This document shows, piece after piece, positions 2,195 to 33,297 of a stretch of DNA of 64,000 bases. Within the stretch, counting starts at the first letter, position 1, and each line of letters starts with the position of its first letter. Made by a program: the position numbers and the translations under genes. The notes under the pieces were generated by a model, which made no database searches, was not told the origin of the DNA, and saw nothing but the letters and a program-made list of their open reading frames with translations. Origin of the DNA: Promethearchaeota archaeon (lineage in GTDB: Archaea > Asgardarchaeota > Heimdallarchaeia > Hodarchaeales > Hodarchaeaceae); assembly GCA_048938105.1 (NCBI GenBank), contig JBHLMN010000005.1, positions 151,318 to 215,317 on the forward strand, read 5' to 3'.

Positions 2195-2197
2195 TAC

Positions 2198-11357: not shown

Positions 11358-11576
11358 AAAGCACTTGAAGTACTCCTTAAGAATCAAATATCATTTATTA
11401 TTGCGTACAGGCTTTCAACAATTTCAGATACTTATCGAATCATTGTAATGGAAAAAGGGCAGATTATCGAAGAGGGAACCCATGAGTCCTTGCTTGCTGA
11501 GGGAGGAATGTATAGCCAACTGTATAAGCAATATTATGAACATCAAAGTCTGGACTGGAAATCCATTTCCCTTTAA
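11358..11576 (+). pseudogene. Startless duplicate of the last ~70 codons of the upstream ABC gene
   Basis: Translates KALEVLLKNQISFIIAYRLSTISDTYRIIVMEKGQIIEEGTHESLLAEGGMYSQLYKQYYEHQSLDWKSISL*, matching 8747-8960; in-frame TAA at 11355 and no start. Confidence 0.88.
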
Positions 11577-11603
11577 TCGTTTTCAAATTGAATTGAGTAA
11601 GTA

Positions 11604-11870
11604 CTAGAATCCTTTTCCAAAAAAAGCTGTCAGATTAAAATACAGATTAACAACACTTTGATCAGTAAGTTGAATTATTATTCGATCATATACTTGCTGT
11701 TTCTCATTCAATAATTCTTGTTTGATTAATTGCCATTCTACTCCTCTTCTGCCGAATTCGTTCTCAATATATCGATATTCCGCGTCTATTCCCTCAAAAT
11801 GATCATCAACGTCAGTTATGATAATAGCATCTTCAATTGATCTTCCTTCATTAGCAGAATAAGTTACCAT
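11604..11870 (-). CDS. Small hypothetical protein
   Basis: 88 aa; GRSIEDAIII..GIDAEYRYI..YFNLTAFFGK; AGGAG upstream. Confidence 0.7.
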   Translation of the reverse strand: MVTYSANEGRSIEDAIIITDVDDHFEGIDAEYRYIENEFGRRGVEWQLIKQELLNEKQQVYDRIIIQLTDQSVVNLYFNLTAFFGKGF

Positions 11871-12072
11871 TCCGTTTGTTCTCCTGATATGTCTCGATAT
11901 AGTTGAGAATCAAAAGAAGCAATATCTTAAATAAAAAGTTTAATAAAATTACAATTCAGAAAACAGCACAATCATTGTGTATTTTTCGAAGTATCCTAGA
12001 ATCAATGTAAATAATGTAGTTTATGAGTTTCAATTTATCAGTACTTGCTAGTTGACAATCTAAGAAGGAAAA

Positions 12073-13455
12073 TTGAACATGGTTAACAAACAGAAGCTTG
12101 TTTCTATCAGTTCCTTTTTAACAATTACTTATTTAGCATTCTTTGGGTTTATATTTTTCTCTTCTAATTCTTTAGGATCTGAGTTAATAAGTGATAACCC
12201 CAATTTGTTTATAAGTGAAGAATATACGGATAATGTTCCAGATGGTATCCTTCTAATCGGTGCAGACAACGTTTGGAATCGAACAGCTGGTTCCCCAGAG
12301 ATAATAGTTGCAGTTCTCGATACTGGACTTGATGCTACTCATTCCGATCTGGTAAATGCTCTTTGGAATAACACAGATGAAATCCCAAATAATGGTATCG
12401 ATGATGATGATAATAACTACATTGATGATTGCCATGGATGGGATTTTGTACGTAATAATAATGATCCATTCAATCTCTCCATTTATGACAATTCCAAATA
12501 TAAATCTAGTTTAAAAAGACATGGGACGCATGTTACCGGTACAATTGCAGCTCGTTTGAATAATTTTGGAGTGGTTGGAGTTGCTCCTAATGTTTCGATC
12601 ATGACTCTAAGAGTCGTGAATGAAAGCGACTGGAACCCTGATATCCTCGTCGCTGAAGCTATTCGCTATGCTACCAATAATGGCGCTCAAATTATTTCTA
12701 TGAGTATTGGTATTTATAATGAAGAGATTACCAATTCAACTTCTTACCAACTCGTTGAGGATGCGTTACAATATGCTTTTTCAATGGGCGTACACATTGT
12801 GGCTTCAGCAGGGAATGATTATCCTGCTCCTGTTATTCGACCTGCAAATAATGACTATGTAATAGCTGTTGGAGCAATTGATTCTATGAAAAAAATTGCA
12901 TCCTTTTCGTGTCAAGGTCCGGAAGTTGAAGTTGTCGCTCCAGGTGTTAATGTTTATTCTACAGTCCCTGGTGACAATTTTGGCTCTTCATCGGGTACTT
13001 CGATGGCGGTACCTCATGTATCAGGAGCTTTGGCGCTTATGATTAGCTATGATCCCAGTTTGACTAATACTGAAGCCCGTATGATTTTACAACAAACAGC
13101 GGAAGATCTGGGTACATCTGGTCGAGATGATGTGTATGGATTTGGATTGATCAATCTTACTCGTGCTATAGAAACCATTGCTGCAATGAAGTATACTTCA
13201 ACATCAACTGAGTCTACAACTTTATCCTCAACAAATTCGGAAACCACACCCATTTTTTCATCTACTTCGGCTACAATTCCCTCATCGACAACAACTTTAG
13301 AAACAAAAACCATGTATAATTCATCTTCAAAAACCACAAATTCTTCTCAAATAAATTCAAAAACAACAGCCATAGATGGCTTTTTATTCTATTTGTTTGT
13401 CCTCCTCGTCCTTCCTCTCACTAGGTTGTATCAACATAGAAGAGAAAGAAACTAA
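12073..13455 (+). CDS. S8 subtilisin-like serine protease, membrane-anchored
   Basis: Triad VLDTG / HGTHVTG / GTSMA, oxyanion SAGN, DDDDNNYIDDCHGWDF insert; Ser/Thr stalk, DGF + TM + RRER. Confidence 0.93.
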   Translation: MNMVNKQKLVSISSFLTITYLAFFGFIFFSSNSLGSELISDNPNLFISEEYTDNVPDGILLIGADNVWNRTAGSPEIIVAVLDTGLDATHSDLVNALWNNTDEIPNNGIDDDDNNYIDDCHGWDFVRNNNDPFNLSIYDNSKYKSSLKRHGTHVTGTIAARLNNFGVVGVAPNVSIMTLRVVNESDWNPDILVAEAIRYATNNGAQIISMSIGIYNEEITNSTSYQLVEDALQYAFSMGVHIVASAGNDYPAPVIRPANNDYVIAVGAIDSMKKIASFSCQGPEVEVVAPGVNVYSTVPGDNFGSSSGTSMAVPHVSGALALMISYDPSLTNTEARMILQQTAEDLGTSGRDDVYGFGLINLTRAIETIAAMKYTSTSTESTTLSSTNSETTPIFSSTSATIPSSTTTLETKTMYNSSSKTTNSSQINSKTTAIDGFLFYLFVLLVLPLTRLYQHRRERN

Positions 13456-15820: not shown

Positions 15821-18800
15821 TTGGTAGAGATGAGATTAAAGATTGTTCGTCTTTTCGGAATAATATTGTTATTTATTTATATGGTAACGTTATGTTCAAC
15901 AATTGTCTCAATAGAGAAATATGAAAGCGAAGAGACTTCTAATTTCTTTATTGATATACTTAGAGGGGTAGGTATTCCCCCTGCAAAAGAATACATAGGA
16001 GCTCCTATTGAACGTCTTATGTCTGAATCTGTCGATGATGATCTTCATTTTTCCAATTTTAGTATTAATTCTAAAATTGGGGGTTCTTATGCAAGAACAG
16101 ACTGGGTAGATACGCGTTGGAAATTTAGGAAGAATATTACAATAGATCACAATCAGGTACCAGCAGATCTTGAAAATTTCCCAGTGTATGTTGAGTTGTT
16201 TGATACTGATCTTCAGGAGCATGCACAAGCGAGTGGAAATGATATATTTTTCACGAATGAGAAAGGAAAAGTTTTGGATTTCGAAATTGAACAATATCTT
16301 AGAACTTATAACTCTAGTCATGCCAAATTAGTTGCTTGGGTAAGAGCAAATGTGTCAAGTTCTGCCCCTGACACAATTCTTACGATTTATTATGGTAATC
16401 CCTTATCTTCTAATCACGAAAATCCTTCTGGGGTTTGGGATAATAACTATCTTTTTGTTCTTCATATGGATCAAGACCCTTCTATTTCTGATATTCTTGA
16501 TAGCTCTCAAAATGGCTTTGATTTCGATGTAGAACCCACAAGTAATATGAATTCTGATGATCTTGTCATTGCGCAAACTGGTAAAGGAATTTCATTCGAT
16601 GGATCTGATGATTATATATTTCTGCCATACTCTGAGAATTTTATAGGGTCAGTTGATAAAATGACCTTTGAATTCTGGATAATGTTTCCAAACGGAGGTC
16701 CTGTTTCACGAGAATGGCTTGCTGCTCCAGGAACGACCTCTCATAATCCGAGATTGTCTTTTAATTACAATTTTGATTTTAGAGTAGAAGGTATTTTGAC
16801 TTCAACCTCTGAACTGACTTCTGCTTTATCATCTTTTTCAGCAAACACATGGTATTATATTACAGCCATTTGGGATGGGACAGGGGATGGACTTCATGAA
16901 ATATACATTAATGGTCTATGGGATAATGATGATAGCACCCCACTAGCAGAGCAACATATAGAATGGAATACATTTGCCATCGGTGCGGAAGATGACGAGA
17001 CGAATGGTGTTGGTGGTGATAATCCTCATAATGAGATTAATGCAGTAGTTGGAGAATTTAGATTGTCAAACAGTGTTCGAGATTCAAATTGGATTTGGAC
17101 TCAATTTAGCAATCAAAAGGATCCAAGGGATTTTTTCGCCCTTAGTTCAGAAGAAGAATCACCAACACAAGACGACTGGTTACTCCCACTCTATAAATAC
17201 AGAAAGAACATTCATATTAATTCTTCACAAATTAGTGGAACTTTAGTAAACTTCCCTATCCTTATTGATGTTATTGATTCTGACTTAAGTGATACTAGTA
17301 AAGTTCAATCAGATGGGGACGATATTGCATTTACCTCTAATGAGGGATGGATTTGGAGCGATGAGCTGATTAGCAATGGGGGGTTTGAAACAGGGAATTT
17401 CGCTGGATGGACAGTATCTGGAAATTGGGCCGTCGGGACTGATCCATCCCAAGGTGATAAAGGCCCTCAAGCAGGAAGTTATTGTGCATATGTCTCGTCT
17501 TCGGGTCAATCTACTGATTATATTCAGCAAGATATTAACATTGGGAGTTATGCTAGCTATATTGACTCTGGGAAAGCGATATCTAATGTTACTGGATGGA
17601 TGGTGGCAGCAGAAGATGGTTTTGATTATTGTAATATGGCTATTGAATATTTGGACAACATAAAAAGTGTTATCTCAACACCCGTTGACAAAGGCAATTT
17701 ACTACCAACTTCTTGGACAAAATATGGTGCTATTTCAGATTTAATACCAATTAACACCCGATATATTAGAATCCGTGCATCTTGTTGTGAAGAGGGTTGG
17801 GATGCCGGAAGCTTGGACTCTTTTAGTGTGAAAATTGGCACATATCAATCTCTTACTCGTGGTTTCCAACTAAGCCATGACATTGATTATTTTGATCAAG
17901 GAACTGGTCATCTTGTTGCTTGGGTTAATGTACCACGCTTAGCGAGTGATACCAATAACAATATAACCATATATTATGGAAATGATGTTTTAAGAAACAA
18001 CCAAGATCCTTCCAATGTTTGGAAGCAATATCATGAAGCTGTATGGCATCTTTCAGAAGAAAGTGGATCAAGCAGCTATATTGTAGATTCAACAATGAAT
18101 GGGTATGACGGAACACCATCGGGTACCCAATATCTTCAATCAGGATTGGTTGGAGGAGCAAGGGATTTTATAGCTTCAGGAGTTAATGAAATCGTTATGG
18201 ATGATGGTTCTGAATTGCTAGATGGTTGGGATGCTTTTACTATCTCTTTTTGGATATACCCCAACTTTGCCAGTGATTCAGAATGGGAAAGCGCGAGTAA
18301 TGGGGCAGTTTTCTACAAACAACAATCTGCGTGGCTTTCACGAATTTGGCGAGTTTCTGGGATGGATCCAGGTGTGGGTAAATTCCAAGTAGATTTAAAT
18401 TTCGAAAATTCAGGGACTCAATATATAAATGTAGATATTTATCGTCAATATTGGAATTGGATAGTGTATAGCTTTGATGGCCAGTACTTGCGAATTTTTG
18501 TAAATGGATCATTCATGGGATCAAATGATCTGGGGAGCGATAAGCTAGTATCCGATACAAGTCAGTTCAAGCTAGGTAATGGAGCAAGTACGTTTAAAGG
18601 GTATCTTGATGAATTTCAATTACTTAATTATGGAAAAACTGTTGACTGGGTGACAACAGAATACACGAATATCGATGACCCCACCTCATTCTATACTGTA
18701 GGGGAAGAAGAAAACAGTAGTAAGTGGTGGGCTGATACGTCATTCGGATACCGGAGAGATATTGTAATTGACCGTAATGAGATAGCTGGTGATTTGAGGA

Positions 18801-21800
18801 ATTTCCCAGTCCTAATTGACATTAGTTCCACAAGTTTTAAAGAGAGTCAGATAAGATCAGACGCAAATGATATTCTTTTTACTGATGAATTTCAGAATAA
18901 ATTAGATTTTGAGATTGATTATTTCTCACAAACTCCCACCCAAGGACGGTTAATTACCTGGGTTAAAATTCCTTACCTTTATGAATCTGTAGATACTGTA
19001 ATATCTCTTTATTATGGAGGAACATCACCTCTTGAATCACAACAAGATCCTGTTGGTGTATGGGAATCAGATGTTGGGGTATGGCACCTATCAGAGGATC
19101 CCTCTGATACAGATCCTCAATTTAGCGATAGTACAGGAAATTCAAATGATGGAACTGCTGTTGCATTAACAACATCCAATCAAGTGACTGGAATTATTGA
19201 TGGGAGTTTAGAGTTTGACGATACGAACGAACGTCATGTTGAAGTTAATCATTCATCTTCGCTTCAATTATCTTCAAACATTAGCGTATTTACGTGGGTT
19301 AAAACAACAGATAGCGATTCAGATGTTGGAGTTATAGTTGCAAAGTGGGGAAGTCAAAGTACAGACAGAAATTACTGGTTGGGAAAGCTTGATGCCGCAA
19401 ATATTGCATTTTATGTTGATGACACCCAAACAGTATCATCAAATTTAAATCTGATAAATAACGACATCTGGCATCTAGTTGTTGGCGTTGCTGATGCATT
19501 GAATGGTCAATTACGATTGTATGTTGATGGAGTTCTCAGAAATTCAGCCAGTTATGATGGAACTTCTTTTACTGGTAGTTCAAGTTTTCACGTTGGAAAT
19601 AGTCCTGGAGAAATATTTCAAGAATGGAATGGATTAGTTGACGAAGTTCGAGTTTCAGGAAGAATATACTCCGTAGAATGGCAAACAACTTCATATAACA
19701 ATCAATTATTACCTTCAAATTTCATTGTTGTGAGTGGAGAACGAGAATTCGATGTAATATCTCCTACCCTAAATGACTTTGGTGTTGATGACCTAGGAAC
19801 TGGTACAGGTGTGTTCTGGGCACAGGTTACTGATAATTTAGCTGGAGTGAGTTCTGTAAAACTTGAAGTAAATGGAATACCTCATTTAATGAGTGATAAT
19901 GGGACACATTGGATTCATCAAGAAACGGTGGATTATTTAGGCTATTACGAATATCAGATTATTAATGCGTCGGATTCAGTTGGAAATTATCTTATAAATC
20001 CCTCTATTGTGAGAAATTATACATTTATTAATGATATCGTTGCCCCTGATGTAATTGATTGGAAATATATAAGGGTAGAGGATAGATTTTATGCAAATGT
20101 AACTGATTCATGGGGTACGATCGATACTGTTATTGTAGAAGTAACTGCTCATACAGTTTCCTTACCTGATCCCCCAACAGCTGTAATGCAGTTTTACCAG
20201 GATTTTGGAAGTGATCTTCTGGGATATTTGAATGATACTATCGAAATGAGCTCTGGTGATATTGAATTTAGAATTTTTGTCAATGACAGCAATGGTAATT
20301 CTTATACTTCAAGTCCCCACCCTGGAACTGTCTTTAAGAATCATCCTCCTGTTGTCAGTGATCTTACACTAGATACTGCTCCTTATCATAGTAATAGTCC
20401 ATTAGAACTATCATATAATTACACTGATGAGGATGGACATGCAGAAGTTGGAACTGAAATAAGATGGTACAAGAACAATGGCACAGGATTTCAACTAGTT
20501 CCTGATAAGAATAATAGCCTCACAATATCCGCTTCTTTGCTCTTTAAGGATGATGAGTGGTATGTTACCGTAAGACCTAAGGATGGACAAGCTTTTGGGG
20601 ATCTTGAAAACTCTACAATAATAACGATTACTAATACTCCTCCAATTGTTCAATCTGTTCAATTGAATCCAATAAGTGCCTACACTACTTCTGCTCTTAC
20701 TATTCTAAACACCACATCTGATTATGATGGAGACACTATAACAAAATACTACATTGAATGGTTTGTAAATTCTATTCATGATCCAACTTATGATAATGAA
20801 TTTCAGATTAATCCAATTAGCACCACTAAAAACGAGTTTTGGTATTGTCATCTAAGAGCCTTTGATGGAACTGACAATTCAACTTGGGTTAATTCAAATA
20901 CGATCACAATACTAAATAGCCTTCCCAAGGCAGTAAATCTTTCCATTACTCCTGCACAGCCATATAACACTTCCATATTGACAGCAAACTGGGATATGCA
21001 GGATGCGGATGGTGATAGCGAGAATAAAAGTCTCGCAATAATATATTGGTTCAAATATGGAATTCCTCAACTTCATTTAACCAATTCTACCTATATTAAT
21101 CCTGATAATACCAGTAAAGGTCAACTATGGTCGTTTAAAATCCGAGTCTGGGATGGTACAGCTTATTCTGGAAATTACTCTATTTCTCCAATCGAAATAT
21201 TAAACTCGGTTCCAACAGTTAAAAACGTAGAAATATTAATTTCTAATCCTCAATCAGGTGATGATTTGCCAATCGGATGGTATTATTCCGATCTCGATAA
21301 CGATTCGGCTGGAACTCCATTAATTAAATGGTATAGAGATAATGAGTTAATATATGAAAATTATGACCCCTTACCATCATCTGTTACAACCAAAGGGGAG
21401 TATTGGCATTATGGGATTCAGGTTTTCGACGGAGAGGTTTATTCAGCTCAGGTGAACTCAACACAAGTATATATTGAAAATACTGTTCCTATTATTGAAT
21501 CTCTCTCCCTTACAAGTGATGCAAAAACATTAGACGATTTAATAGCTTCTTGGAATGCCCTTGATAATGATACAAGTGATGACTTAGAATTTAATGTTAC
21601 TTTTTATTTAAATGGGAATAAAAATTCTTCATGGCTCACAACTAGCTCAAGTGTGATTTTAGAGTCAGGAAACACTACTAAGCATGATTTATGGTATTTT
21701 ACAGTAGAAGCGTTTGATGGAGACGCATATTCTAACATCTTCTCATTAGAAAGCAATGTTACTATTTATAATTCTTTACCTATTGTACCCCCGAGTAGTG

Positions 21801-24800
21801 CGACTTTCAATAAAACTACTCCGCTAAACAACGAAGGTTTTAATATCACTTATCAATTTACTGATGTTGATGGTGATGTAGAAAACCTAAGTAAAATATT
21901 TGTATATTGGTTTGTAGATTCAGGTGCTGGATTTGAACATCGTCTTGAATTTCAAAATTATACAGAAATCCACTCTGATAATACCTCGGATGGCCAGATT
22001 TGGTATTATAAACTAAGAGTAAGTGACAATGAGGGATATAGTATTAATGTAACCTCAATTTTGGGAGTTCAAATTGGGACTGGTGGTCCGGAAAATAAAC
22101 AACCTAAAGCATGGAATCTGACAATTAAACCGATTTCTCCAAACACAACTCAATCGCTTATCGCAAATTATACTTATTTCGATTTTGATGATGACCCACA
22201 AGTTGCAGTTGAAATACTTTGGTATATGAATAATGATCTTCAACCTGAATTTACTAATCTACTCACTATTTCTTCAAGCGTTACAGAAAAAGGTCAAGAA
22301 TGGAATTTCACTGTTAAAGTTTTTGATGGAACCGATTGGAGCCCGCTAAATTCATCTGATACCATAACGGTTTCTAATGCAGAACCATTCGCAAGTAATC
22401 TTGATTTAACTTCTAATATCTATACTGATGATAACTTAATTGCATCGTGGCAAGCATTTGATTATGATTCAAGTGATAGTTTAACATACAACATAACTTG
22501 GTACCAAAATGGTGTGAAGAATTATTCTTGGATCACTTCAGATCTTAGTGCTGTGTTGAATCATGAAAATACAACTAAGAATGCGAATTGGACCTTCTCC
22601 ATTCAAGTTTTTGACGGAATTATAAACTCACAAGTTTTTTCGTTGGATTATAATGTTACAATATTGAACTCAGCCCCCATAGCCGCAAATCTGACGATAA
22701 CTTCTAATCCACGGAGTATAGATGATCTCATCGCTGGATGGGATTATGATGATATTGATGGTGATCCTGAAGCCGACTCTAGTGCGATTATTACATGGTA
22801 CAAAAATGGAGAGAATCAAACAGGCTTATTCAATAATGATGTGATTGATTCTGGGAATTTAGGTAAGGATGAAAAATGGTGGTTTACAGTTCAAGTTTCA
22901 GATGGAGAAGACCACTCTCTTCAGATATATGAATCTAACCACGTTACAATCTTGAATACAGAACCTCTTATCTCTGGGAGCCAACTTCCTGTTCCTAGTA
23001 GCCCCACTCGACTATCTGGGATTGATCTTAATTTAAACGATATTTTACTTGCCTTCAATGACCCAGATTTAGACGATATTGAAATAATTGAAATCAGTTG
23101 GTATAGAAACAATGTTTCACAAGAACAATTCGCACAGAGTTTGTCAATCGATGGAGATTATTTCACGAAGGGTGAAACTTGGAATTATTCTGTGATTGTT
23201 ACCGATGGTTTATCTAATTCGTCTGTTCTCTTCTCTCAAGTGTTTCAAATTAAAAATTCGAAGCCCGTTGTAGAAAATTCACATTTTGAGGACACTGATG
23301 TTAAAACAAATGATGATCTGGTAATTATATACCAAGCGACGGATGTTGATAATGATCCAATAACAGTAGCTAATATAATTTGGGAGCTTTATAATTCTAC
23401 TAGTGGCGAATATGATATAATGACAGATTATAACAATACGATGGTTTTACCTTCTAATGCCACAACAAAAGGGGAAATCTGGTTGTTTGAAATTCAGGTG
23501 ACGGATGGATTACTAGTTTCCGAATGGGACGACCCGACAATCCCAATTGTGATAGAGAATAGTGTTCCTCGTATAATTATAGATAGTATTACCATTTCTG
23601 GGGGGGAAACTACTCAAAGTTCTCTAACTGTGAATTACTATTGGGAAGATGACGATCCTGAGGATGATGAAGGAGCGACAGGAATTATCTGGGAAAGTAG
23701 TACTCAATATATAACAAATGAATCTACCAATCTTCCTTCTAAATATACTGTTGCTGGAGAAAGATGGTGGGTAACCATACGTCCTCATGATGGAGAGGAT
23801 TACGGGGAGTATTATGATAGTAAACAGTTTGGGGTGACCATTATCATCGGGAACACTCCACCTTACGTAATACCTGATGAAGCAGCAATATTCGGTATTT
23901 TAAATGAAACTATTTATGATAGAAGTACTGTAGGAACTACCCTTGACTTGGTTGTTAAATATAATGCTTCTGATATTGATGGTGATCAAGGAGTAGTTGC
24001 TTATGATATCGTACTAATTGAAGGGGATTATGTAAGTAATTCAGAATATCATTGGTATAGAAATCGCTCTGGAATTGTTACCCAAGTATCAACATTAAAT
24101 GGGAAAACCAAAGTTCCATTCTATTTCACACAACGTGGTGACATTTGGTGGTGTGAGATAAAGCCAAGAGATCTTTACGGTGATTTTGGCTCTACTTATA
24201 ACTCAACTCCAATAATTATTGGAAATACCGCGCCCAAGATTAGGGATATCAGTTGGTTAAATGATTATCCAACTGCTAATGACAATTTAAGTATCGAATT
24301 TGATTATTTTGATGCTGATAATGATCCTATAGTGGAATCTAAAACTCTTATATTGTGGTACAAAAATGGGAACCTAATATTTGGCACTGAAAATCAAACA
24401 ACTATATCAAACACCTATTTTATAAAAGATGATAACATTACTGTTATCATTAGACCATTTGATGGAAAAAATTGGGCAGCATGTAATTTTACTAGCGGAA
24501 TCATTCGAATACAGAACTCCCCCCCAATTATTAATGAGATTATACTTGAACCTTTAGTTTTCGAGGATCTTGCAATTTTGTGCCTTAATTGGTCTTATTA
24601 TGATTTAGACGGAGATCCTGAAAGTAATAATTACTATATTAGATGGATTAGAAATGGAGGGGTTGTGCCTGAGTTTGAGAATTCATCATATATCCCCTTA
24701 ATTACTGTAAGTAATGGCGATTTATGGCGTGTTGAACTGAAGGTTAATGATGGAACGAATTATAGTGTTCTCTACTTAAATCATATTTATACCAAAGTTG

Positions 24801-26479
24801 TGAGAGTTGAGTACGTTTTTGAAGCATCTTCAAATGTTGATCCCAATATTAGAATAGATGAATTTTGTGTAGAAGACGAGAATATCAGAATTATATATCA
24901 ATTTTCGATTCAAAACGATGCCCTCAATTCGTTAATTCAATGGTACAAAATTTTTCCAAATGGGACATACATCGAAGTGTTTGACTTTGAAAATTCTACT
25001 TCCATACCTTATTGGGCCACTTCGGTTGGTGAAAGGTGGTACTGCACAATTACTCCCTTTGATGGAAAGTACTACTGGAGAAGGATTAATACATCACGGA
25101 TTATAATACTAAGTCGTCCAATTATTGAAACATTAATAGAAGATATAGTAATAGCACTATCTGATATAGAAGGCCATTATCTCTTCAACCTGACAGTAGG
25201 TGATACTGAAAATCCTGTTACATTCGTTGAATACACACTAAATGATACTGTACGCCTTGCGGAGCAAATAAATCAAAATACATGGGTATTAGATTATCAG
25301 CTACCAATTAATAATTTCGCGAGCTTAGAGGGAACCTTGATTGTCGGAGAAGTTAAAGTAGGGTACTCAGTAAATCAATCATTTGATGTATTTACATTTC
25401 TTAATCTTAACTTTACAGTTGTTGATTCTGCTGCTCCAAGAGTATTCAATGCATATTTTGCTCCTAGTGAGGTAAATATCACCTTTTTTGCAGAAGTAGA
25501 AGAATTCGGGAGTGGTATAAACTCGGTAATATGTCATTACTACTTTGAACCTGTAAATGAGACTGAAGGTGGAGCTGGAGGCTCAATAAACCACTATGTG
25601 CATTCATCTCAGATGACTTTTTTGAATTCTACAGACTCAGCTCAACTTTATTTAGTAACAATACCATTCAAACAAAACGGAACTGATTGGAGAGTTATTT
25701 ATTGGATAGAAACCTTTGATAATGCAGGTAATCATAATCCAAGGGCATTTGATGTTTTAAGAGATGAACCTGAAAGTGTTGATTTAAATATAATAAAGTT
25801 CATTCCCCCTGGGTTGCCTCAATGGATATTACTAGTTGCTGGAGCCATTATTTTCCTTATTTTTTTCGGTGCTGTCGTTTATGTACGATTTATCCGAAAG
25901 GCTGAATTGGTAGGATTAGACAAAGAGATGGTAATGAAAGGTATAGCACAATTCTCTGATGCTGAAATCTCATCACAGATGGAGCATCATACAATTGGAG
26001 GTATGGTAAGTTTCTTTGATCAACGACATGGGCCTATTCCCATTGTCGTTCATCCTGAAGTTTTGAAAGACAATTTTCCTAAGCTTGTTGATCTCAGTGA
26101 TAAGTCTTTTTCGAGTACTGGTTTTAGTAGTAACTTTACTACTGAAACAACCTCATCTTATGATTATGTGCTAGACCAAGATTTACTTGTCGCAGTCATG
26201 AGCTTTGGATTCTCCTTAGACAAACCTCAGGCTAGAGGGGGACAAGAAAATATCACTTTTAATCTTATTATCTATAAAGATCTTTTCGATCTCCTGAATC
26301 AATTTCTCAATGAAATAAAGGTTGAGGTTCATAAGTTACATATGATTATGAATGATCCATCCACACCAAAACAACAGTTGAGAAATGACATTGTTCGGAT
26401 CAGGAAGTATGTTACTAGCATTATTATGAGCTATGAGTCACAATATGGGACCACAGAACTCCTTGAGGAAGAAATTTAA
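15821..26479 (+). CDS. Giant single-pass surface protein: 3x DUF2341+LamG, ~16 cadherin/Ig-like repeats, TM helix, cytoplasmic longin/uDENN-like domain
   Basis: W...W.YRK.I.I...L.NFP..DI.FT...WV modules each followed by LamG (WH...W; G..DE.R); repeats N..P..D.DGD..WY..DG; TM 25823-25885; tail FFDQRHGPIP..FSLDKPQARG. Probable start ATG 15830. Confidence 0.85.
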   Translation: MVEMRLKIVRLFGIILLFIYMVTLCSTIVSIEKYESEETSNFFIDILRGVGIPPAKEYIGAPIERLMSESVDDDLHFSNFSINSKIGGSYARTDWVDTRWKFRKNITIDHNQVPADLENFPVYVELFDTDLQEHAQASGNDIFFTNEKGKVLDFEIEQYLRTYNSSHAKLVAWVRANVSSSAPDTILTIYYGNPLSSNHENPSGVWDNNYLFVLHMDQDPSISDILDSSQNGFDFDVEPTSNMNSDDLVIAQTGKGISFDGSDDYIFLPYSENFIGSVDKMTFEFWIMFPNGGPVSREWLAAPGTTSHNPRLSFNYNFDFRVEGILTSTSELTSALSSFSANTWYYITAIWDGTGDGLHEIYINGLWDNDDSTPLAEQHIEWNTFAIGAEDDETNGVGGDNPHNEINAVVGEFRLSNSVRDSNWIWTQFSNQKDPRDFFALSSEEESPTQDDWLLPLYKYRKNIHINSSQISGTLVNFPILIDVIDSDLSDTSKVQSDGDDIAFTSNEGWIWSDELISNGGFETGNFAGWTVSGNWAVGTDPSQGDKGPQAGSYCAYVSSSGQSTDYIQQDINIGSYASYIDSGKAISNVTGWMVAAEDGFDYCNMAIEYLDNIKSVISTPVDKGNLLPTSWTKYGAISDLIPINTRYIRIRASCCEEGWDAGSLDSFSVKIGTYQSLTRGFQLSHDIDYFDQGTGHLVAWVNVPRLASDTNNNITIYYGNDVLRNNQDPSNVWKQYHEAVWHLSEESGSSSYIVDSTMNGYDGTPSGTQYLQSGLVGGARDFIASGVNEIVMDDGSELLDGWDAFTISFWIYPNFASDSEWESASNGAVFYKQQSAWLSRIWRVSGMDPGVGKFQVDLNFENSGTQYINVDIYRQYWNWIVYSFDGQYLRIFVNGSFMGSNDLGSDKLVSDTSQFKLGNGASTFKGYLDEFQLLNYGKTVDWVTTEYTNIDDPTSFYTVGEEENSSKWWADTSFGYRRDIVIDRNEIAGDLRNFPVLIDISSTSFKESQIRSDANDILFTDEFQNKLDFEIDYFSQTPTQGRLITWVKIPYLYESVDTVISLYYGGTSPLESQQDPVGVWESDVGVWHLSEDPSDTDPQFSDSTGNSNDGTAVALTTSNQVTGIIDGSLEFDDTNERHVEVNHSSSLQLSSNISVFTWVKTTDSDSDVGVIVAKWGSQSTDRNYWLGKLDAANIAFYVDDTQTVSSNLNLINNDIWHLVVGVADALNGQLRLYVDGVLRNSASYDGTSFTGSSSFHVGNSPGEIFQEWNGLVDEVRVSGRIYSVEWQTTSYNNQLLPSNFIVVSGEREFDVISPTLNDFGVDDLGTGTGVFWAQVTDNLAGVSSVKLEVNGIPHLMSDNGTHWIHQETVDYLGYYEYQIINASDSVGNYLINPSIVRNYTFINDIVAPDVIDWKYIRVEDRFYANVTDSWGTIDTVIVEVTAHTVSLPDPPTAVMQFYQDFGSDLLGYLNDTIEMSSGDIEFRIFVNDSNGNSYTSSPHPGTVFKNHPPVVSDLTLDTAPYHSNSPLELSYNYTDEDGHAEVGTEIRWYKNNGTGFQLVPDKNNSLTISASLLFKDDEWYVTVRPKDGQAFGDLENSTIITITNTPPIVQSVQLNPISAYTTSALTILNTTSDYDGDTITKYYIEWFVNSIHDPTYDNEFQINPISTTKNEFWYCHLRAFDGTDNSTWVNSNTITILNSLPKAVNLSITPAQPYNTSILTANWDMQDADGDSENKSLAIIYWFKYGIPQLHLTNSTYINPDNTSKGQLWSFKIRVWDGTAYSGNYSISPIEILNSVPTVKNVEILISNPQSGDDLPIGWYYSDLDNDSAGTPLIKWYRDNELIYENYDPLPSSVTTKGEYWHYGIQVFDGEVYSAQVNSTQVYIENTVPIIESLSLTSDAKTLDDLIASWNALDNDTSDDLEFNVTFYLNGNKNSSWLTTSSSVILESGNTTKHDLWYFTVEAFDGDAYSNIFSLESNVTIYNSLPIVPPSSATFNKTTPLNNEGFNITYQFTDVDGDVENLSKIFVYWFVDSGAGFEHRLEFQNYTEIHSDNTSDGQIWYYKLRVSDNEGYSINVTSILGVQIGTGGPENKQPKAWNLTIKPISPNTTQSLIANYTYFDFDDDPQVAVEILWYMNNDLQPEFTNLLTISSSVTEKGQEWNFTVKVFDGTDWSPLNSSDTITVSNAEPFASNLDLTSNIYTDDNLIASWQAFDYDSSDSLTYNITWYQNGVKNYSWITSDLSAVLNHENTTKNANWTFSIQVFDGIINSQVFSLDYNVTILNSAPIAANLTITSNPRSIDDLIAGWDYDDIDGDPEADSSAIITWYKNGENQTGLFNNDVIDSGNLGKDEKWWFTVQVSDGEDHSLQIYESNHVTILNTEPLISGSQLPVPSSPTRLSGIDLNLNDILLAFNDPDLDDIEIIEISWYRNNVSQEQFAQSLSIDGDYFTKGETWNYSVIVTDGLSNSSVLFSQVFQIKNSKPVVENSHFEDTDVKTNDDLVIIYQATDVDNDPITVANIIWELYNSTSGEYDIMTDYNNTMVLPSNATTKGEIWLFEIQVTDGLLVSEWDDPTIPIVIENSVPRIIIDSITISGGETTQSSLTVNYYWEDDDPEDDEGATGIIWESSTQYITNESTNLPSKYTVAGERWWVTIRPHDGEDYGEYYDSKQFGVTIIIGNTPPYVIPDEAAIFGILNETIYDRSTVGTTLDLVVKYNASDIDGDQGVVAYDIVLIEGDYVSNSEYHWYRNRSGIVTQVSTLNGKTKVPFYFTQRGDIWWCEIKPRDLYGDFGSTYNSTPIIIGNTAPKIRDISWLNDYPTANDNLSIEFDYFDADNDPIVESKTLILWYKNGNLIFGTENQTTISNTYFIKDDNITVIIRPFDGKNWAACNFTSGIIRIQNSPPIINEIILEPLVFEDLAILCLNWSYYDLDGDPESNNYYIRWIRNGGVVPEFENSSYIPLITVSNGDLWRVELKVNDGTNYSVLYLNHIYTKVVRVEYVFEASSNVDPNIRIDEFCVEDENIRIIYQFSIQNDALNSLIQWYKIFPNGTYIEVFDFENSTSIPYWATSVGERWYCTITPFDGKYYWRRINTSRIIILSRPIIETLIEDIVIALSDIEGHYLFNLTVGDTENPVTFVEYTLNDTVRLAEQINQNTWVLDYQLPINNFASLEGTLIVGEVKVGYSVNQSFDVFTFLNLNFTVVDSAAPRVFNAYFAPSEVNITFFAEVEEFGSGINSVICHYYFEPVNETEGGAGGSINHYVHSSQMTFLNSTDSAQLYLVTIPFKQNGTDWRVIYWIETFDNAGNHNPRAFDVLRDEPESVDLNIIKFIPPGLPQWILLVAGAIIFLIFFGAVVYVRFIRKAELVGLDKEMVMKGIAQFSDAEISSQMEHHTIGGMVSFFDQRHGPIPIVVHPEVLKDNFPKLVDLSDKSFSSTGFSSNFTTETTSSYDYVLDQDLLVAVMSFGFSLDKPQARGGQENITFNLIIYKDLFDLLNQFLNEIKVEVHKLHMIMNDPSTPKQQLRNDIVRIRKYVTSIIMSYESQYGTTELLEEEI
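20339..25120 (+). repeat. About 16 tandem ~100-aa cadherin-like repeats within the giant ORF
   Basis: Successive starts NHPP, NTPP, NSLP, NSVP, NTVP, NSLP, NKQP, NAEP, NSAP, NTEP, NSKP, NSVP, NTPP, NTAP, NSPP plus one degenerate unit; most carry a DxDxD-type motif. Confidence 0.8.
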
Positions 26480-27325: not shown

Positions 27326-30250
27326 ATGTTGGAGCTTCACCCGGATGTCCCAATATCATTAAATCGTTTAGCGGAACTAGCTGAACAGGAGACAAACGAG
27401 TGCGAAGAGAATATTAGGAGATTATTAAGAGAAGGGGAGATAGTAGGGAAATACTTTGAATTCGAACAAGTGTTTATTCTGGGAGAGACAACACTTTATT
27501 GTCAATTTGATGAAAGAAAGTTCTCAACATCAACGCCTCACTATACCTGTTCGTCCTGTGGAAGGCATGTATGCGGTTGGTGTGTTGGAAAACAGCTTAC
27601 AATTGGATTTGTTGTTTGTCCTAACTGCAATACAAAGTTTGATCCGAATCCTATAATTAAATCAATGGAAATGTCTATGGATAATTATAAAAGAAAATAC
27701 GGAGAGGGTCTCGGTTTTATATCGGAGGAAAAATGGAATGAAGCCTCAGAAGTTTTCCAAGAAATACTTGCAGATAACTACAATGATGATTTAGCTTGGT
27801 TCAACCTAGGGTTCGTCTTAAGCGAACGAGATAAGTATAAAGATGCACTTTATTGTTTAAAAAAAGCCAATGAGCTAAGACCAAATAATCTGACAACACT
27901 TCTAAAATGGGGGATAACACTTCATAAAATGGCTCATGTCGAAGAAGCCATTGAAAAGTATCAAGCTGCTGAGAGGGTACGTCCAAATTATCCTCCTACT
28001 CTATTAAAATTGGCGAATGCGCTTACTGAGTTAAAATATACAGAGGAAGCGTTAAAAAAGTGTGAAACTGTTGATAAATTGCAGTTGAACCATCCTAAAA
28101 CTCTCGCAGACTTGGGAGATGCTTATTTAGATTTAAAAAATGTTAAGAAAGCTATAAAGAAATACAAAGCTGCAACCGAACTAGGACACAACCATCCCTC
28201 AACAGTTATGAATTGGGGGAAGGCTCTATATGCCTTAGCTCGTATAGATAAAGCGTTAAAAAAGTTTCAGGAAGCAGATAAATTACAACCAAACCACCCT
28301 GGTATTCTCGTAAACCTTGGAATAGCACTTTATGCCTCAGGTCGTGAAGAGGAAGCTGTACAGAAGTTCCAAGCTGCAAATAAACTACGACCATATCATT
28401 CATTAACGATCTATAACTGGGCTAAAGCGCTCTATAAGTTGGGTCGTTTAGAGGAAGCTATAGGAAAATATCAAGCTATAAACGAACTACAACCTAACAA
28501 TCCCTCAATACTTGTAAATTGGGGTATAGCACTTGATGAATCGGGTCGTTCAGAGGAAGCTATACAAAAATATCAAGCTGCAGACAAACTACGGCCGAAC
28601 CACCCTGATATTCTTATGAACTGGGGGATAGCACTCCGTCAGATAGGTAATTCGGAGGAAGCTATAGAAAAATATCAAGCTGCAGATAATCTAAGACCTA
28701 ACCGCCCTGACACTCTCGTAAACTGGGGTATAGCTCTTAGTAATTTGGGTCGTACAAAAGAAGCCATACGGAAGTATAAAGCTGCATCTAAACTATTTCC
28801 AAGACAACCATTGGCGTTCTATAACTGGGGTTTAATTTTCTATAAGATGGGTCGCCTGAAAGAAGCCATAAAGAAATTCCAAGCTGCAAATAAATTTAAA
28901 TCAAAATTCCCAGAGGTTTTCATAAATTGGGGAAATGTACTTGGGAGCATGGGGCGACCAAAGGAAGCTATAAAGAAATTCCAAACTGCAGATAAATTAC
29001 GACCGAACAACCCCGATATTTTCTATAATTGGGGTAAAATGCTCCAAAGCGCGGGTTTTTTAGAAGAAGCCATACAGAAGTACGGACTTGCATATAAACT
29101 ACGACCAAACCATTCATTGACCCTCATAAATTGGGGTCTTGCACTCGATGAGTTGGGATATTCAAGGGAAGCCATACAGAGGTACCAAGCTGCGGATAAA
29201 GTACAACCAAGAAATCCTGATACTCTCATGAATTGGGGTATAACACTCCGTAGCTTGGGTCGTTCAGAAGAAGCCTTACGGAAGTACCAAGCTGCGGATA
29301 AATTACGACCGAATCACCCTGATACTCTCGTGAATTGGGGTATAGCGCTCCGTAGCTTGGGTCGTTCAGAAGAAGCATTACGGAAGTACCAAGCTGCGGA
29401 TGAATTACGACCGAACCATCCATTAACACTCTCAAATTGGGGTATAGCACTTCGTACTTTAGGCCGTTCTGAAGAAGCATTACAGAAGCACAAAATTGCC
29501 AATGAATTACATCCAGGAAACCCTGACATTATACTGAACTGGGGGATAACGCTTCGTACTTTGGGGCGTACTGAGGAAGCATTACAGAAGTTTCAAGCTG
29601 CAAACAAACAACGGCCGAACCACCCATCAACACTTGTAAACTGGGGGATTGCACTATATGAGTTAGGCCATACAGAAGAAGCATTACGGAAGTTTCAAGT
29701 TGCGGATGAACAACGGCCGAACCACCCACCGACACTTGTAAATTGGGGGATTGTACTCGATGAGTTGGGTCGTTCACAGGGAGCATTACGGAAGTTTAAG
29801 GCCGCAGCTAAAGTGCAACCGAGAAATCCTGATATCCTCGTGAACTGGGGGATTGCACTAGACAAATCAGGATATTCAGAGGAAGCAATACAAAAATACC
29901 AAGCTGCAGACAGAATACAACCGAGAAATCCTGATATTCTCGTGAATTGGGGCATTGCACTCCGTCGTCTTGGTCGTTCCGAGGAGGCCATCCAGAAGTA
30001 CCAAGATGCGAATAAACTACGACCGAATCATTCATTAACGCTATACAACTGGGGTATTGCGCTCCGTAGTATCGGTCATGCGGAGGAGGCCATCCAGAAG
30101 TACCAAGCTGCTTACGAGTTACAACCGGAAAATATGTCGATCCTATATAACTGGGGAAATGCGCTATATGAGGTGGGACATATTGAGGAAGCCATAAAAA
30201 AATGGGTTGCCAGTATAAGAGGTAGTGTGGAGGATCAGAAGCTAAAATAG
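27326..30250 (+). CDS. PCI-like winged helix + RING-like Zn finger + 25 TPR repeats
   Basis: ISLNRLAELA..ECEENIRRLLREGEIVGKY; CQFD-x12-CSSCGRHVCGWC-x11-CPNC; 34-aa repeats PDTLVNWGIAL..LGRSEEA..KYQAAD.LRPNH. Confidence 0.85.
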   Translation: MLELHPDVPISLNRLAELAEQETNECEENIRRLLREGEIVGKYFEFEQVFILGETTLYCQFDERKFSTSTPHYTCSSCGRHVCGWCVGKQLTIGFVVCPNCNTKFDPNPIIKSMEMSMDNYKRKYGEGLGFISEEKWNEASEVFQEILADNYNDDLAWFNLGFVLSERDKYKDALYCLKKANELRPNNLTTLLKWGITLHKMAHVEEAIEKYQAAERVRPNYPPTLLKLANALTELKYTEEALKKCETVDKLQLNHPKTLADLGDAYLDLKNVKKAIKKYKAATELGHNHPSTVMNWGKALYALARIDKALKKFQEADKLQPNHPGILVNLGIALYASGREEEAVQKFQAANKLRPYHSLTIYNWAKALYKLGRLEEAIGKYQAINELQPNNPSILVNWGIALDESGRSEEAIQKYQAADKLRPNHPDILMNWGIALRQIGNSEEAIEKYQAADNLRPNRPDTLVNWGIALSNLGRTKEAIRKYKAASKLFPRQPLAFYNWGLIFYKMGRLKEAIKKFQAANKFKSKFPEVFINWGNVLGSMGRPKEAIKKFQTADKLRPNNPDIFYNWGKMLQSAGFLEEAIQKYGLAYKLRPNHSLTLINWGLALDELGYSREAIQRYQAADKVQPRNPDTLMNWGITLRSLGRSEEALRKYQAADKLRPNHPDTLVNWGIALRSLGRSEEALRKYQAADELRPNHPLTLSNWGIALRTLGRSEEALQKHKIANELHPGNPDIILNWGITLRTLGRTEEALQKFQAANKQRPNHPSTLVNWGIALYELGHTEEALRKFQVADEQRPNHPPTLVNWGIVLDELGRSQGALRKFKAAAKVQPRNPDILVNWGIALDKSGYSEEAIQKYQAADRIQPRNPDILVNWGIALRRLGRSEEAIQKYQDANKLRPNHSLTLYNWGIALRSIGHAEEAIQKYQAAYELQPENMSILYNWGNALYEVGHIEEAIKKWVASIRGSVEDQKLK
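27686..30235 (+). repeat. 102-bp-period TPR-coding tandem repeat
   Basis: 25 units counted in the translation; neighbouring units around 29228-29431 are highly similar at DNA level. Confidence 0.9.
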
Positions 30251-30303: not shown

Positions 30304-33297
30304 TCATAATATATCTGATAAGGTCTGTCTTGTTTTTATCAAGATAACAATGATATTAGATAGAATTATTCCAAATATAATACTCAGATCTGAAGATGGG
30401 AAAATTATCAGGCCTCCTATATTGGTTGATTGAAATAATTCTATTTGTGTCATCATCAGGATCCCCATCATCGAACCCAAAAAACTAGCAAATACGCTCA
30501 TGATAACTAATTGAACAGATATCATTATATAAATTTGCATCAAGGATCCTCCTAACCTTTTTATGGATTGTAAGCTCCTGTAGTTCATTATAATTGGATA
30601 TGAAATTACAGAAGAAACATTCAACAGGGATAATGCTGCTATTATGAGTACTAATGCTATCAGTGAAGTTTTTGCTACTTCTAACGCCCCACCTAGGAAA
30701 CTTTCCATATAGTCTGTAGATTCTACTACATCAATATTAGTTCTACCTCTTCGATTCACTGAAGAAGCTAAATCATAATTAATTTCAGTTGGCATCTTTA
30801 AAGTTAATGAAATTGATTTTTTCTCTTCTGCGAAACTTATTAACACTGTTTCATAAACAGTATTTCTAATTAATGCTGTTACAGAGTAATTTCCCCACGG
30901 TAGATCTAAAAATGTAATAGTAGCATTTTGGGTTGTTATACCTGTTCTTGAAATATTAAACAGGATGTTTTGAATGACTATTCTTGCTCCTACTATTCTT
31001 CTGCCTTCTGAAGACATAACCTTTAGAATCAATTTACCTGTAAGATCTAAAGTTTCCCCTACAATGTAGACTTGACTTTCCATAAATGATACATTAAATT
31101 CTCGTTTGAAATCAAAATGTTCAATTGAAATAGAATAATTCCCTAAAGGGATTGTTACTACTGATTTTCCTGATGTGTTGGTAGTAAATTTTTTAAAAAT
31201 GCTTCCATTATAAAAGATTGTAACATTAGTTCCTTCAATAGGAATATTACTTGAAGTTCTAAATAGAAATTTCAATTTTACATCTCCTAAAGGGATGTTC
31301 ACAAATGTTGTCTCTTGAGAAATTTCAATTTCCTTATGCCACTTATAATGGTTATATGTAGCATTAAGATAGTAATTTCCAGAATTGTTTAATAAGAATC
31401 TGACAATCCCATCATCATTTGTAAAAGATGTGTTTATGATCTCACTATCATTGTAAAGGTCTATTTTACAATTGCTTAAGCCATTTAATTCAAGAGTTTC
31501 TATTGTACCGTTGTATGCTCTGATTTCCACCCAATAGATCTCGGTTTGATTTGGTGATAGGAATTTTAAAGGTATTATTGTTGAAGAATCAAAAAAAATT
31601 GTTGTAGAAATAGAATTATTATTCTGTGGATTTTCAGCAGTTACCATATAATTGAATCCAGTTTCTAGCTCAAAAATTACTTTACTTTGGCTATTAGTCT
31701 TCATATAGTCGATCAGGACACCTTTAGAATAAATTGAAACATTCACATTTTCAATAACTTCCCCCTTATAACCAAGGACGTTGATTTCTAATTTTCCCTT
31801 TCCAATGTAAATTTGATTACTGGTATTAGCAGAAATTGTTTGATTCCATGATCTTACTTTCTCTCCTATCGAATAATTAACCAAATAAATTCCAGGTTCA
31901 TCTATATACAATATCTCTTTACTATCATATTGGAGCCAGGTGAGATTATTCGTTGGATATAGTAACTGAGTCGGATTGCTCGAATTTATGAGCTGTATTT
32001 TACCTCCATCAATCTCTTCCTCAGTTGTAGCATTCAAAACTTCTATTTGTAAAAAGTTTTTTAACTCAACATTGATTGTATCGTCATTACTAATTCTAAA
32101 GCGAGTTTTAATATCACTATTGCTCTCAATGCTGTTATGATTCACTTCAAACCTCTCCAATAATCCCTTATAAAGCACAGTGACAGAGTAATAACTGGTG
32201 ATTAAATTATAAAATGTGACAATACCATCTGATTGTGTTACTCCTGTGTATATCATATCTGGATGAAATTTTTCTCGAAGTGTTACCCTTGCATTTATTG
32301 CTGGGTGATTATTATATGTTACATTGATTTTTAAGTCTTTTCTTGTTTTTCCAACCCATAGAGTCACTGGAGAGGGTAATGGTTGATATATAAAAACCTC
32401 AACGGGAGAACTCTGTTGTATGTTTTTTGAATCCGCAATTAACCGATAGCTTCCAAAAGAGAGTTGTAAAGTACCTGTACCATCGGAGCTCAAGTCTGTT
32501 GTTAGAAGTAACTCACCTGCTAAGCTATACACAAGGACATAAACGTTATTGAAATTTTCAATAAAATCATGAGATCGCACAATAATTGGAACTTCATACT
32601 CTCCTTTTACTATTGTTTTTAACTGTGATTTTGTGACTACTGATGGATCTACCTTGACTCTTATAAACGAAACAAAATCGGATAAAATGCCTTTTAATGC
32701 CTGTGCTGTAGCTAAAGGAAGAATTAATTCAGTATCCATTGGTGAATCAGTTGTAATTATTCCCTCAATCGTCACTGTAACAGTCATTGGTGTTAAAGTG
32801 CTTACTAATGTTAATCTCGACCCAATTGCCAGTTCATGTTCTTCTGCAAGGGATTTTCCTGCTACTGCTCCAAGGGTTATACTCATGTTTGAGTCACTCG
32901 AGAGTTGATCAAACCATTCTCCTTCCAGATTTATTTGTTGAGTAATATCTAAGAACTTTGATGTTATTCCCCTAACAATTATTGCACTCTCATCCAAATT
33001 CTGAACGATTACAGCTGTTAAAACTTCTGCGCTAATGATTTCTACACCCTCCAACTTTTCAACATCATACACAAATGAAAGAGGAACCGTTCCAGTCATA
33101 GGTGTGGTTGTTCCTGATGGTGTAATAACTAAAATATCTTCTTCTTCTCCCAAAAAAAAATCTTCAGGTTTTATTCCTATGACGAAAGAACCAACTGCTG
33201 CCGAAGTAAATGAAATAAATAATATTGCGATTATAAATAAATTAAGATCTTTTTGTGAAAGAATTCGTACTTTCGCTAAAGTGATTCTATTGAACAA
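30304..33297 (-). CDS. FtsX/MacB-family ABC permease with very large extracellular region of beta-sandwich (carboxypeptidase-regulatory-like) repeats
   Basis: N-terminal TM + MacB-type core (IIVRGI..VAGKSLAEEHELAIGSRL); repeats I.GA.V.I....TN..G...F..L..GNY; C-terminal KRLGGS + TMs. Confidence 0.75.
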   Translation of the reverse strand: MFNRITLAKVRILSQKDLNLFIIAILFISFTSAAVGSFVIGIKPEDFFLGEEEDILVITPSGTTTPMTGTVPLSFVYDVEKLEGVEIISAEVLTAVIVQNLDESAIIVRGITSKFLDITQQINLEGEWFDQLSSDSNMSITLGAVAGKSLAEEHELAIGSRLTLVSTLTPMTVTVTIEGIITTDSPMDTELILPLATAQALKGILSDFVSFIRVKVDPSVVTKSQLKTIVKGEYEVPIIVRSHDFIENFNNVYVLVYSLAGELLLTTDLSSDGTGTLQLSFGSYRLIADSKNIQQSSPVEVFIYQPLPSPVTLWVGKTRKDLKINVTYNNHPAINARVTLREKFHPDMIYTGVTQSDGIVTFYNLITSYYSVTVLYKGLLERFEVNHNSIESNSDIKTRFRISNDDTINVELKNFLQIEVLNATTEEEIDGGKIQLINSSNPTQLLYPTNNLTWLQYDSKEILYIDEPGIYLVNYSIGEKVRSWNQTISANTSNQIYIGKGKLEINVLGYKGEVIENVNVSIYSKGVLIDYMKTNSQSKVIFELETGFNYMVTAENPQNNNSISTTIFFDSSTIIPLKFLSPNQTEIYWVEIRAYNGTIETLELNGLSNCKIDLYNDSEIINTSFTNDDGIVRFLLNNSGNYYLNATYNHYKWHKEIEISQETTFVNIPLGDVKLKFLFRTSSNIPIEGTNVTIFYNGSIFKKFTTNTSGKSVVTIPLGNYSISIEHFDFKREFNVSFMESQVYIVGETLDLTGKLILKVMSSEGRRIVGARIVIQNILFNISRTGITTQNATITFLDLPWGNYSVTALIRNTVYETVLISFAEEKKSISLTLKMPTEINYDLASSVNRRGRTNIDVVESTDYMESFLGGALEVAKTSLIALVLIIAALSLLNVSSVISYPIIMNYRSLQSIKRLGGSLMQIYIMISVQLVIMSVFASFLGSMMGILMMTQIELFQSTNIGGLIIFPSSDLSIIFGIILSNIIVILIKTRQTLSDIL

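Follow-up and report, generated by a model that had tools for sequence, protein, structure and literature searches.

The stretch of DNA analysed here (the window, 64,000 nucleotides in full; positions 151,318 to 215,317 of contig JBHLMN010000005.1, GenBank assembly GCA_048938105.1) belongs to a Promethearchaeota archaeon of the Hodarchaeaceae and carries a very large gene whose product joins a predicted ectodomain of about 3,300 residues, one transmembrane (TM) helix and a C-terminal tail (Table 1). The frame is uninterrupted through 3,552 codons and a stop, giving a product of 3,552 residues, and a frame of 10.6 kb at 35% G+C cannot be chance (the window as a whole is about 30–38% G+C, with one 2-kb bin at 42%). 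The annotated start is the TTG at 15821; the ATG at 15830 (M4), three codons on, is the likelier one. A preliminary description, made from the sequence, had presented the product as a giant single-pass adhesin-like receptor with a cytoplasmic longin domain of the FLCN/SMCR8 type and had linked it to small GTPases, and the frame, the laminin G modules and the TM helix that it described are all present.

A hydropathy scan finds a single strong hydrophobic segment, the TM helix, apart from the N-terminal signal peptide or signal anchor. Lysine and arginine number four in the 15 residues after the helix and one before it, while N-x-S/T sequons number 83 in the long N-terminal part (46 are predicted by composition) and two in the tail, and cysteines 11 and none. 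Because of the signal or anchor, the charge bias and the distribution of sequons, we place some 3,300 residues outside the cell and the last 197 inside it, in agreement with the cytoplasmic tail of the preliminary description; as judged from the sequons, the surface protein is probably N-glycosylated.

Fold and conserved motifs of the tail

AlphaFold2 (AF2), given an alignment of 79 tails, returned a model with a predicted local distance difference test score (pLDDT) of 92.3 and a predicted template modelling score (pTM) of 0.88; from the tail as a single sequence the pLDDT was only 40. In tail numbering, where G47, P48 and R115 are G3404, P3405 and R3472, the elements are strands 34–43 and 47–54, helix 56–76 and strands 86–95, 98–110 and 118–128, followed by helices. 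The model is structurally nearer to the longins of FLCN, FNIP, NPRL, SMCR8 and C9orf72 than to SNARE, TRAPP or adaptor longins.

Two motifs to which the preliminary description had drawn attention lie where it put them, GGMVSFFDQRHGPIPIVVHP at residues 3393–3412 (nt 25997–26056; its first F is residue 3398, nt 26012) and FGFSLDKPQARGGQENITF at residues 3462–3480 (nt 26204–26260), the first spanning G3404-P3405 and the second R3472. It has been reported that a Gly-Pro (GP) motif, lying at the loop or the beginning of strand 2, is the mark of the longins of GTPase-activating proteins (GAPs), namely FLCN, NPRL2, SMCR8 and C9orf72, that it adjoins the arginine finger, that one class of Asgard longins has both, and that it is absent from FNIP2, from NPRL3 and from other longins that are non-GAP (PMC12290439). 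Across the 79 tails, which diverge to about 24% identity, the glycine is kept in 79, the proline in 77 and the arginine in 78.

We are highly confident in assigning the tail to the folliculin-type longin domains. The preliminary description had named this class, and the AF2 fold and the near-invariant GP and arginine, at the places set out in PMC12290439, uphold it. Set beside FLCN, SMCR8, NPRL2 and C9orf72, with which that description had proposed to compare it, the tail resembles the GAP longins in structure and goes unmatched by sequence profile. The term folliculin-type refers to fold and motifs; we do not call the tail a folliculin-family member because the Pfam Folliculin profile does not match it and the DENN domain is missing.

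A family of membrane-anchored tails

Tail homologues were sought exhaustively with HMMER among 1.84 billion cluster representatives and found in 139 clusters (E<=1e-3), with the match nearly always at the extreme C-terminus of proteins of 200–5809 residues, and the unit of TM helix plus tail terminates about 130 protein clusters with differing ectodomains. The geometry of the unit is kept, since in 186 of 198 members the TM helix ends 46–50 residues ahead of the GP motif, with a basic stretch after it (for example YVKFIRKPEL). Exceptions without a TM helix are few, and are either short fragments or soluble proteins of about 280–350 residues whose N-terminal domain is unrelated. Members with a named organism are all from Asgard archaea (Hodarchaeales, Kariarchaeaceae and metagenome-assembled genomes, MAGs, labelled Heimdall, Thor or Hermod), and nearly all are annotated as 'hypothetical'. 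The preliminary description had proposed a survey of Asgard proteins with this tail behind different ectodomains, and the tail is indeed found behind many, in Asgard archaea alone among the named members.

Of the 19 genomes of the window's genus among 300 of the phylum, 18 have the tail in its strong form, mostly with 3–11 matches each; the window's own genome has five strong copies, in frames of 1134 to 8857 residues. Two other families of the class have more diverged forms, and elsewhere there are weak matches to frames of about 350–480 residues. One genome outside the window's class (G025) has two strong matches (E 6e-69), the other out-of-class genomes having weak ones only, and these could be due to gene transfer or a binning error.

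The soluble members of about 280–350 residues (P0057, P0059, P0066, P0071, P0074 and P0079) have no TM helix and carry an N-terminal domain of about 130–170 residues without a family assignment; that of P0057 has an L-G-P-M-P stretch of its own. A tandem-longin reading of these proteins was considered and set aside, as the N-terminal domain has no match in Pfam or the PDB and its hhalign match to the GP region is non-significant; it might nevertheless be a roadblock domain or a further longin.

Linkage to Rag-like GTPase genes

There are about 77 Ras-superfamily matches in the window's genome, and the best of the Gtr1/RagA type adjoin tail genes or related soluble longins. Upstream of a 2580-residue paralogue of the window's protein, on contig C28, a gene for a 729-residue Rag-like protein lies 239 bp away on the same strand, and next to it a divergent gene for a 300-residue Rag-like protein. 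Both proteins match PF04670 Gtr1_RagA (1e-37 for the 300-residue protein and 5e-32 for the 729-residue protein, whose Rag-like GTPase domain is N-terminal), and 72 homologues keep the motifs GxxxxGKS, DCGGQE and HKxD without exception, which places the two proteins in the Rag/Gtr family. The shorter protein shares 53–87% identity across Asgard lineages, with the P-loop, DCGGQE and the Rag-typical HKxD kept.

In four other genomes of the genus a pair of Rag-like genes touches tail genes, upstream, downstream or convergently. Over five same-genus genomes a Rag-like gene lies within 1 kb of 7 of 35 tail genes against about 0.14 expected, a count that is no formal test, the genomes being kin and not independent samples. 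The linkage recurs further afield: a Heimdall MAG encodes on one strand, in this order, a Rag-like protein, a 645-residue tail protein and a 1328-residue DUF2341/LamG tail protein; in a Thor-labelled MAG a 1549-residue tail protein adjoins long and short Rag-like genes; a Hermod MAG has a 1811-residue DUF2341/LamG tail protein followed by a 693-residue Rag-like protein; and in a Hodarchaeales MAG (L021) a Rag-like gene lies 4.5 kb from a tail gene. One Heimdall genome has no Rag-like gene within 10 kb of its tail gene, a Ras-like gene alone being nearby. In a second Thor-labelled MAG a gene for a 298-residue Rag-like protein is followed about 200 bp later by one for a 3148-residue homologue of the window's protein (33% identity over 1738 residues), with a like order of modules and a TM helix and tail carrying GP and ARGG; the best match of this homologue in the window's genome is the window gene. 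The connection to small GTPases drawn in the preliminary description is supported, then, by gene linkage in paralogues and homologues, and not at the window's locus.

Several observations were made on these neighbourhoods. The genes beside the 2580-residue paralogue (G000:C28:57968-62399; L009:11969-16400) form a conserved cassette of the 729-residue Rag-like protein, the divergent 300-residue one and a 340-residue protein. Beyond its GTPase domain the 729-residue protein has about 530 residues without an assigned fold; an Atlas look-up of these C-terminal 530 residues gave no usable match, and an hhalign comparison of the tail profile with the protein gave nothing. The 340-residue protein has no Pfam match, and homologues of it (42–46% identity) flank tail genes in Heimdall- and Thor-labelled MAGs (L014, L018), the one in L018 matching a degenerate Rag-like gene of contig C52 at 26% identity. 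The C52 locus (G000:C52:92445-103480; L010) has four or five Rag-like genes, that degenerate one among them, together with genes for a CBS protein, an F420-hydrogenase beta-like protein, an MFS transporter and a 357-residue soluble protein, the N-terminus of which matches the tail profile (hhalign 81%, E 1.3e-5) with GH replacing GP. In L021 the gene for a 1699-residue tail protein is followed by genes for a 290-residue protein, a 118-residue gelsolin-domain protein, a 1014-residue HEAT-repeat protein and a 316-residue Rag-like GTPase, an order that hints at a link between the receptor family, Rag-like GTPases and actin regulation.

Ectodomain and gene surroundings

The ectodomain comprises three modules of DUF2341 plus Laminin_G_3, a carbohydrate-binding module (CBM)-like insert and 17 tandem repeats of about 95 residues. 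Laminin_G_3 (PF13385; 107.6 bits, cut-off 27.6) and DUF2341 (PF10102; 62.9 bits, cut-off 23.4) are each present in three copies above the gathering score, as in surface proteins of the DUF2341/Laminin_G_3 kind. The CBM_4_9-like stretch divides the second DUF2341 module into two (window 17348-17863), apparently as one domain inserted within another; an insert of this kind is absent from modules 1 and 3. The consensus of the repeats has a W, a DG, an N-x-P linker and a D-x-D-G-D, and we take them for probable Ig-like beta-sandwiches. A Pfam scan of the whole protein assigned them to no family at E<=1, cadherin families included, and their sole named Atlas neighbours are Big_9/Ig_2 clusters at a 10–15% share, so that of the laminin G and cadherin-like repeats in the preliminary description the former stand and the latter are not supported. 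From its domain content, lectin-like modules borne on a rod of repeats, the ectodomain looks glycan-binding or adhesin-like.

Table 1. Features of the window gene and its product; residues refer to the protein, positions to the window
Feature	Residues	Position	Strand	Basis
Whole gene, 3552 codons + stop	1–3552	15821..26479	+	Open reading frame listing
Signal peptide or signal anchor; basic n-region, then hydrophobic core	4–30	15830..15910	+	Hydropathy scan, sequence
Module 1, DUF2341 + Laminin_G_3	139–205 + 260–422	16235..17086	+	Pfam
CBM_4_9-like stretch	515–574	17363..17542	+	Pfam, 21.8–23.4 bits against a cut-off of 25.9 (just below)
Module 2, DUF2341 + Laminin_G_3	682–738 + 803–944	17864..18652	+	Pfam
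Module 3, DUF2341 + Laminin_G_3	1014–1074 + 1135–1284	18860..19672	+	Pfam
17 tandem repeats of ~95 residues	1469–3145	20225..25255	+	Iterated profile
Membrane-proximal ectodomain region, no family match	3146–3334	25256..25822	+	Pfam
TM helix, basic stretch RFIRK after it	3335–3355	25823..25885	+	Hydropathy scan
Cytoplasmic tail (197 residues), two short helices then longin domain	3356–3552	25886..26476	+	AF2
Longin core: strand, strand, helix, three strands, C-terminal helices	3391–3542	25991..26446	+	AF2, structure comparison
GP motif, opening strand 2	3404–3405	26030..26035	+	79-tail alignment, AF2, PMC12290439
Candidate arginine finger in the beta4-beta5 loop, motif ARGG	3472	26234..26236	+	79-tail alignment, AF2

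Upstream of the window gene lies a divergent TetR gene and directly downstream, after a gap of 847 bp without an open reading frame of at least 60 residues, a gene (27326-30250, + strand) for a 974-residue protein that consists nearly wholly of TPR repeats behind a cysteine-rich N-terminal region of about 130 residues. Further genes of secreted or surface type surround these (9322-13455 and 30304-34491), encoding a Kelch propeller with a Big_7 domain, an S8 subtilase and a 997-residue protein of CarboxypepD_reg/SpaA-like repeats beside an FtsX-type permease, and the region looks like a cell-envelope neighbourhood.

Proposed mechanism and alternatives

We hypothesise that the protein is a membrane-anchored longin of the folliculin type which engages Rag-like GTPases and, with R3472, stimulates their hydrolysis of GTP at the membrane, a reading to which we give a probability of about 0.6. 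Asgard longins of the FLCN/SMCR8 type have already been proposed as possible GAPs for Asgard Rag or Arf-related GTPases (PMC12290439). On our hypothesis the two-helix linker of about 48 residues, being of fixed length, would keep the longin at the inner face of the membrane, where the tail would engage Asgard Rag-like GTPases and stimulate hydrolysis. R3472 would be supplied as the arginine finger and G3404-P3405 would line the pocket. Two tails would act as a dimer; tandem tail genes and the dimeric longin of PDB 8yqg are hints at most in that direction.

The GTPase binding, the GAP catalysis, the dimerisation and the control by the ectodomain are what we infer, and they are not equally secure. 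That the tail regulates or binds Rag-like GTPases we consider probable, whereas its being a true GAP that uses R3472 falls a little short of an even chance. An outside-in receptor, for which the preliminary description had made the protein a candidate, is a tentative suggestion. In its fullest form, contact or glycan binding by giant surface proteins would unite two longin tails at the plasma membrane in a GAP site, folliculin-like, that serves a Rag-like GTPase pair; the odds are against this form too, which if true would represent an ancestral cell-surface version of the eukaryotic lysosomal FLCN/GATOR1-Rag axis of nutrient sensing. In the opposite direction (inside-out), the state of the GTPase may act on the receptor.

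We also predicted the complex of tail residues 8–192 with GTP, Mg and the GTPase domain (residues 1–200) of the 300-residue Rag-like protein. The ipSAE interface score was 0.59 (runs 0.59, 0.61 and 0.57) against 0.00 for the best of three controls, a result which the tool terms 'weak support'. Its mark is attained by 58 of 80 solved complexes, only seven of them at <=0.60, and by 2 of 110 mismatched pairs, both at <=0.60. Agreement between the runs extended to at least 95% of contacts, with a pLDDT of at least 85 for the partner. We take the prediction as a small push only towards the pairing of tail and Rag-like protein.

A number of points weigh against our hypothesis. The complex was predicted with our own alignments and with ligands, which departs from the tool's calibration, and its score may reflect likeness to the solved FLCN-RagC, GATOR1-RagA and SMCR8-ARF1 complexes and not binding. 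Sequence searches do not lead to known longins: Pfam gives nothing on the tail at E<=1 but one chance-level match, PF11704 Folliculin being absent, and sequence and profile searches of the PDB (phmmer and hmmsearch) return chance-level matches alone and no longin. In folliculin R164 lies within SLARGF (a 78-residue fragment identical to 6ulg_L 115-192), and the sole hhalign alignment of the tail profile with FLCN 115-192 pairs R3472 with R164 at a non-significant E of 0.17 and a probability of 0.35%, so that the register is compatible and homology is not to be inferred from it. No DENN or other domain follows the longin, the protein ending about 10 residues past the last longin helix. Eukaryotic longin GAPs act as heterodimers, and no partner longin for the tail came to light here. 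At the window gene's own locus there is no GTPase neighbour, the nearest Ras-like gene being about 39 kb off; about 75–80% of tail genes in the genus do not adjoin a Rag-like gene, and those that do were counted, as said, in genomes that are kin.

One alternative is a membrane tether or scaffold and not an enzyme. The tails would then hold Rag-like GTPases, themselves without a lipid anchor, to the plasma membrane in the manner of Ragulator, with the conserved arginine serving binding and not catalysis, or, in a variant, the state of the GTPase would decide where the surface protein is placed or how it clusters (inside-out). Dimers of longin or roadblock domains serve generically as platforms for GTPases (PMC10933270), the constant spacing between TM helix and domain fits a docking site, gene linkage implies partnership and not catalysis, and the complex prediction does not separate a GAP from a dock. 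However, the GP motif is confined to GAP longins (PMC12290439), and GP and the loop arginine are retained in 77–79 of the 79 tails even at the lowest identities; we judge a pure tether unlikely.

The partner might instead be another small GTPase, Arf-like or Ras-like, from among the roughly 77 Ras-superfamily matches of the genome. ARF is the target of C9orf72-SMCR8, whose longins are of the same class (PMC12290439), the window gene and most of its paralogues have no Rag linkage, and the Heimdall member noted above has only a Ras-like gene nearby; but where GTPase neighbours are present they are repeatedly of the PF04670 Gtr1/RagA type, in several gene orders and lineages, and we hold this for distinctly improbable. 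Still less probable is a generic C-terminal module for anchoring, sorting or oligomerisation that has a longin fold and nothing to do with GTPases. The tail does resemble a sorting signal in that it occupies the extreme C-terminus without exception, after a TM helix, on many unrelated ectodomains, and longin folds have roles apart from GTPases, as in SNAREs (PMC10933270). Against it, the GAP-type motifs are conserved, the structural kinship is specific to GAP longins over SNARE longins, and the linkage to Rag-like genes recurs. An inverted topology, with the tail outside the cell, can practically be dismissed, given the signal or anchor, the four basic residues after the TM helix against one before it, the sequons, the 11 cysteines against none in the tail, and laminin G, CBM and Ig-like domains that are by nature extracellular.

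Comparison with known systems

The longin of folliculin, in the FLCN-FNIP2 complex that is a GAP for RagC/D (PDB 8dhb, 6nzd, 6ulg), belongs to a soluble protein and is accompanied by a DENN domain, whereas the tail has no DENN domain, is anchored by a TM helix, has two extra N-terminal helices and no PF11704 match, and has a GAP activity that is putative. C9orf72-SMCR8 and GATOR1 (NPRL2-NPRL3) are likewise soluble multi-subunit assemblies, in which a DENN or other domain comes after the longin, at 7–10% identity to the tail. The Lokiarchaeota Roadblock-Longin protein, a dimer (PDB 8yqg), is soluble too, at 12% identity, and has a roadblock domain ahead of the longin where the tail has a TM helix and ectodomain; we found no paper on the 8yqg protein, and no literature match for LokiRagM.

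Ragulator (LAMTOR), a membrane-attached platform of roadblock/longin fold that holds the Rags (PMC10933270), would be the functional analogue of a tether, and differs in consisting of small lipid-anchored lysosomal proteins with roadblock and not longin domains, no arginine finger and no ectodomain. Longin SNAREs (VAMP7, Sec22, Ykt6) are, like the tail protein, attached to the membrane with a cytoplasmic longin. Plexins are single-pass receptors in which one TM helix joins a large ectodomain to a cytoplasmic GAP domain; this domain acts on Rap and needs dimerisation of the receptor for its activity. The analogy is one of working only: the plexin GAP fold is RasGAP-like and unrelated, and plexins are animal-specific and act on another GTPase family.

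Closest to the tail are the Asgard FLCN/SMCR8-type longins already described (PMC12290439, Traffic 2025), which agree with it in class, in the two motifs (the GP and the arginine, in the tail a candidate finger) and in phylum. The tail family differs from them in being membrane-anchored and linked to Rag-like GTPase genes; the paper describes no receptor-type architecture, and its text does not contain the word 'transmembrane'. Fusions of longins with GTPases are also known in Asgard archaea (PMC10933270). Full-text searches of a partial literature collection found no description of a membrane-anchored receptor form of the longin. What is known, then, is the longin class, in Asgard archaea too, and what appears to be new, in that we found no description of it, is the membrane-anchored receptor form with its Rag-like linkage, which gives an explanation for a tail of 197 residues that was otherwise unannotated.

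In eukaryotes, Rag and Arf GTPases at lysosomes are under the control of soluble GAP complexes (FLCN, GATOR1 and C9orf72-SMCR8) whose origin is still debated. The earlier work tied these complexes to the Asgard longin class, without a partner or a cellular setting (PMC12290439). The pairs reported here, of the tail with the 300-residue and the roughly 730-residue Rag-like proteins, can be cloned, and offer a way to ask whether the GAP chemistry of longins and the regulation of Rags predate eukaryotes. The architecture suggests that Rag regulation first worked at the cell surface, and such cell-surface control of Rag GTPases may be older than the eukaryotes whose lysosomal complexes it resembles.

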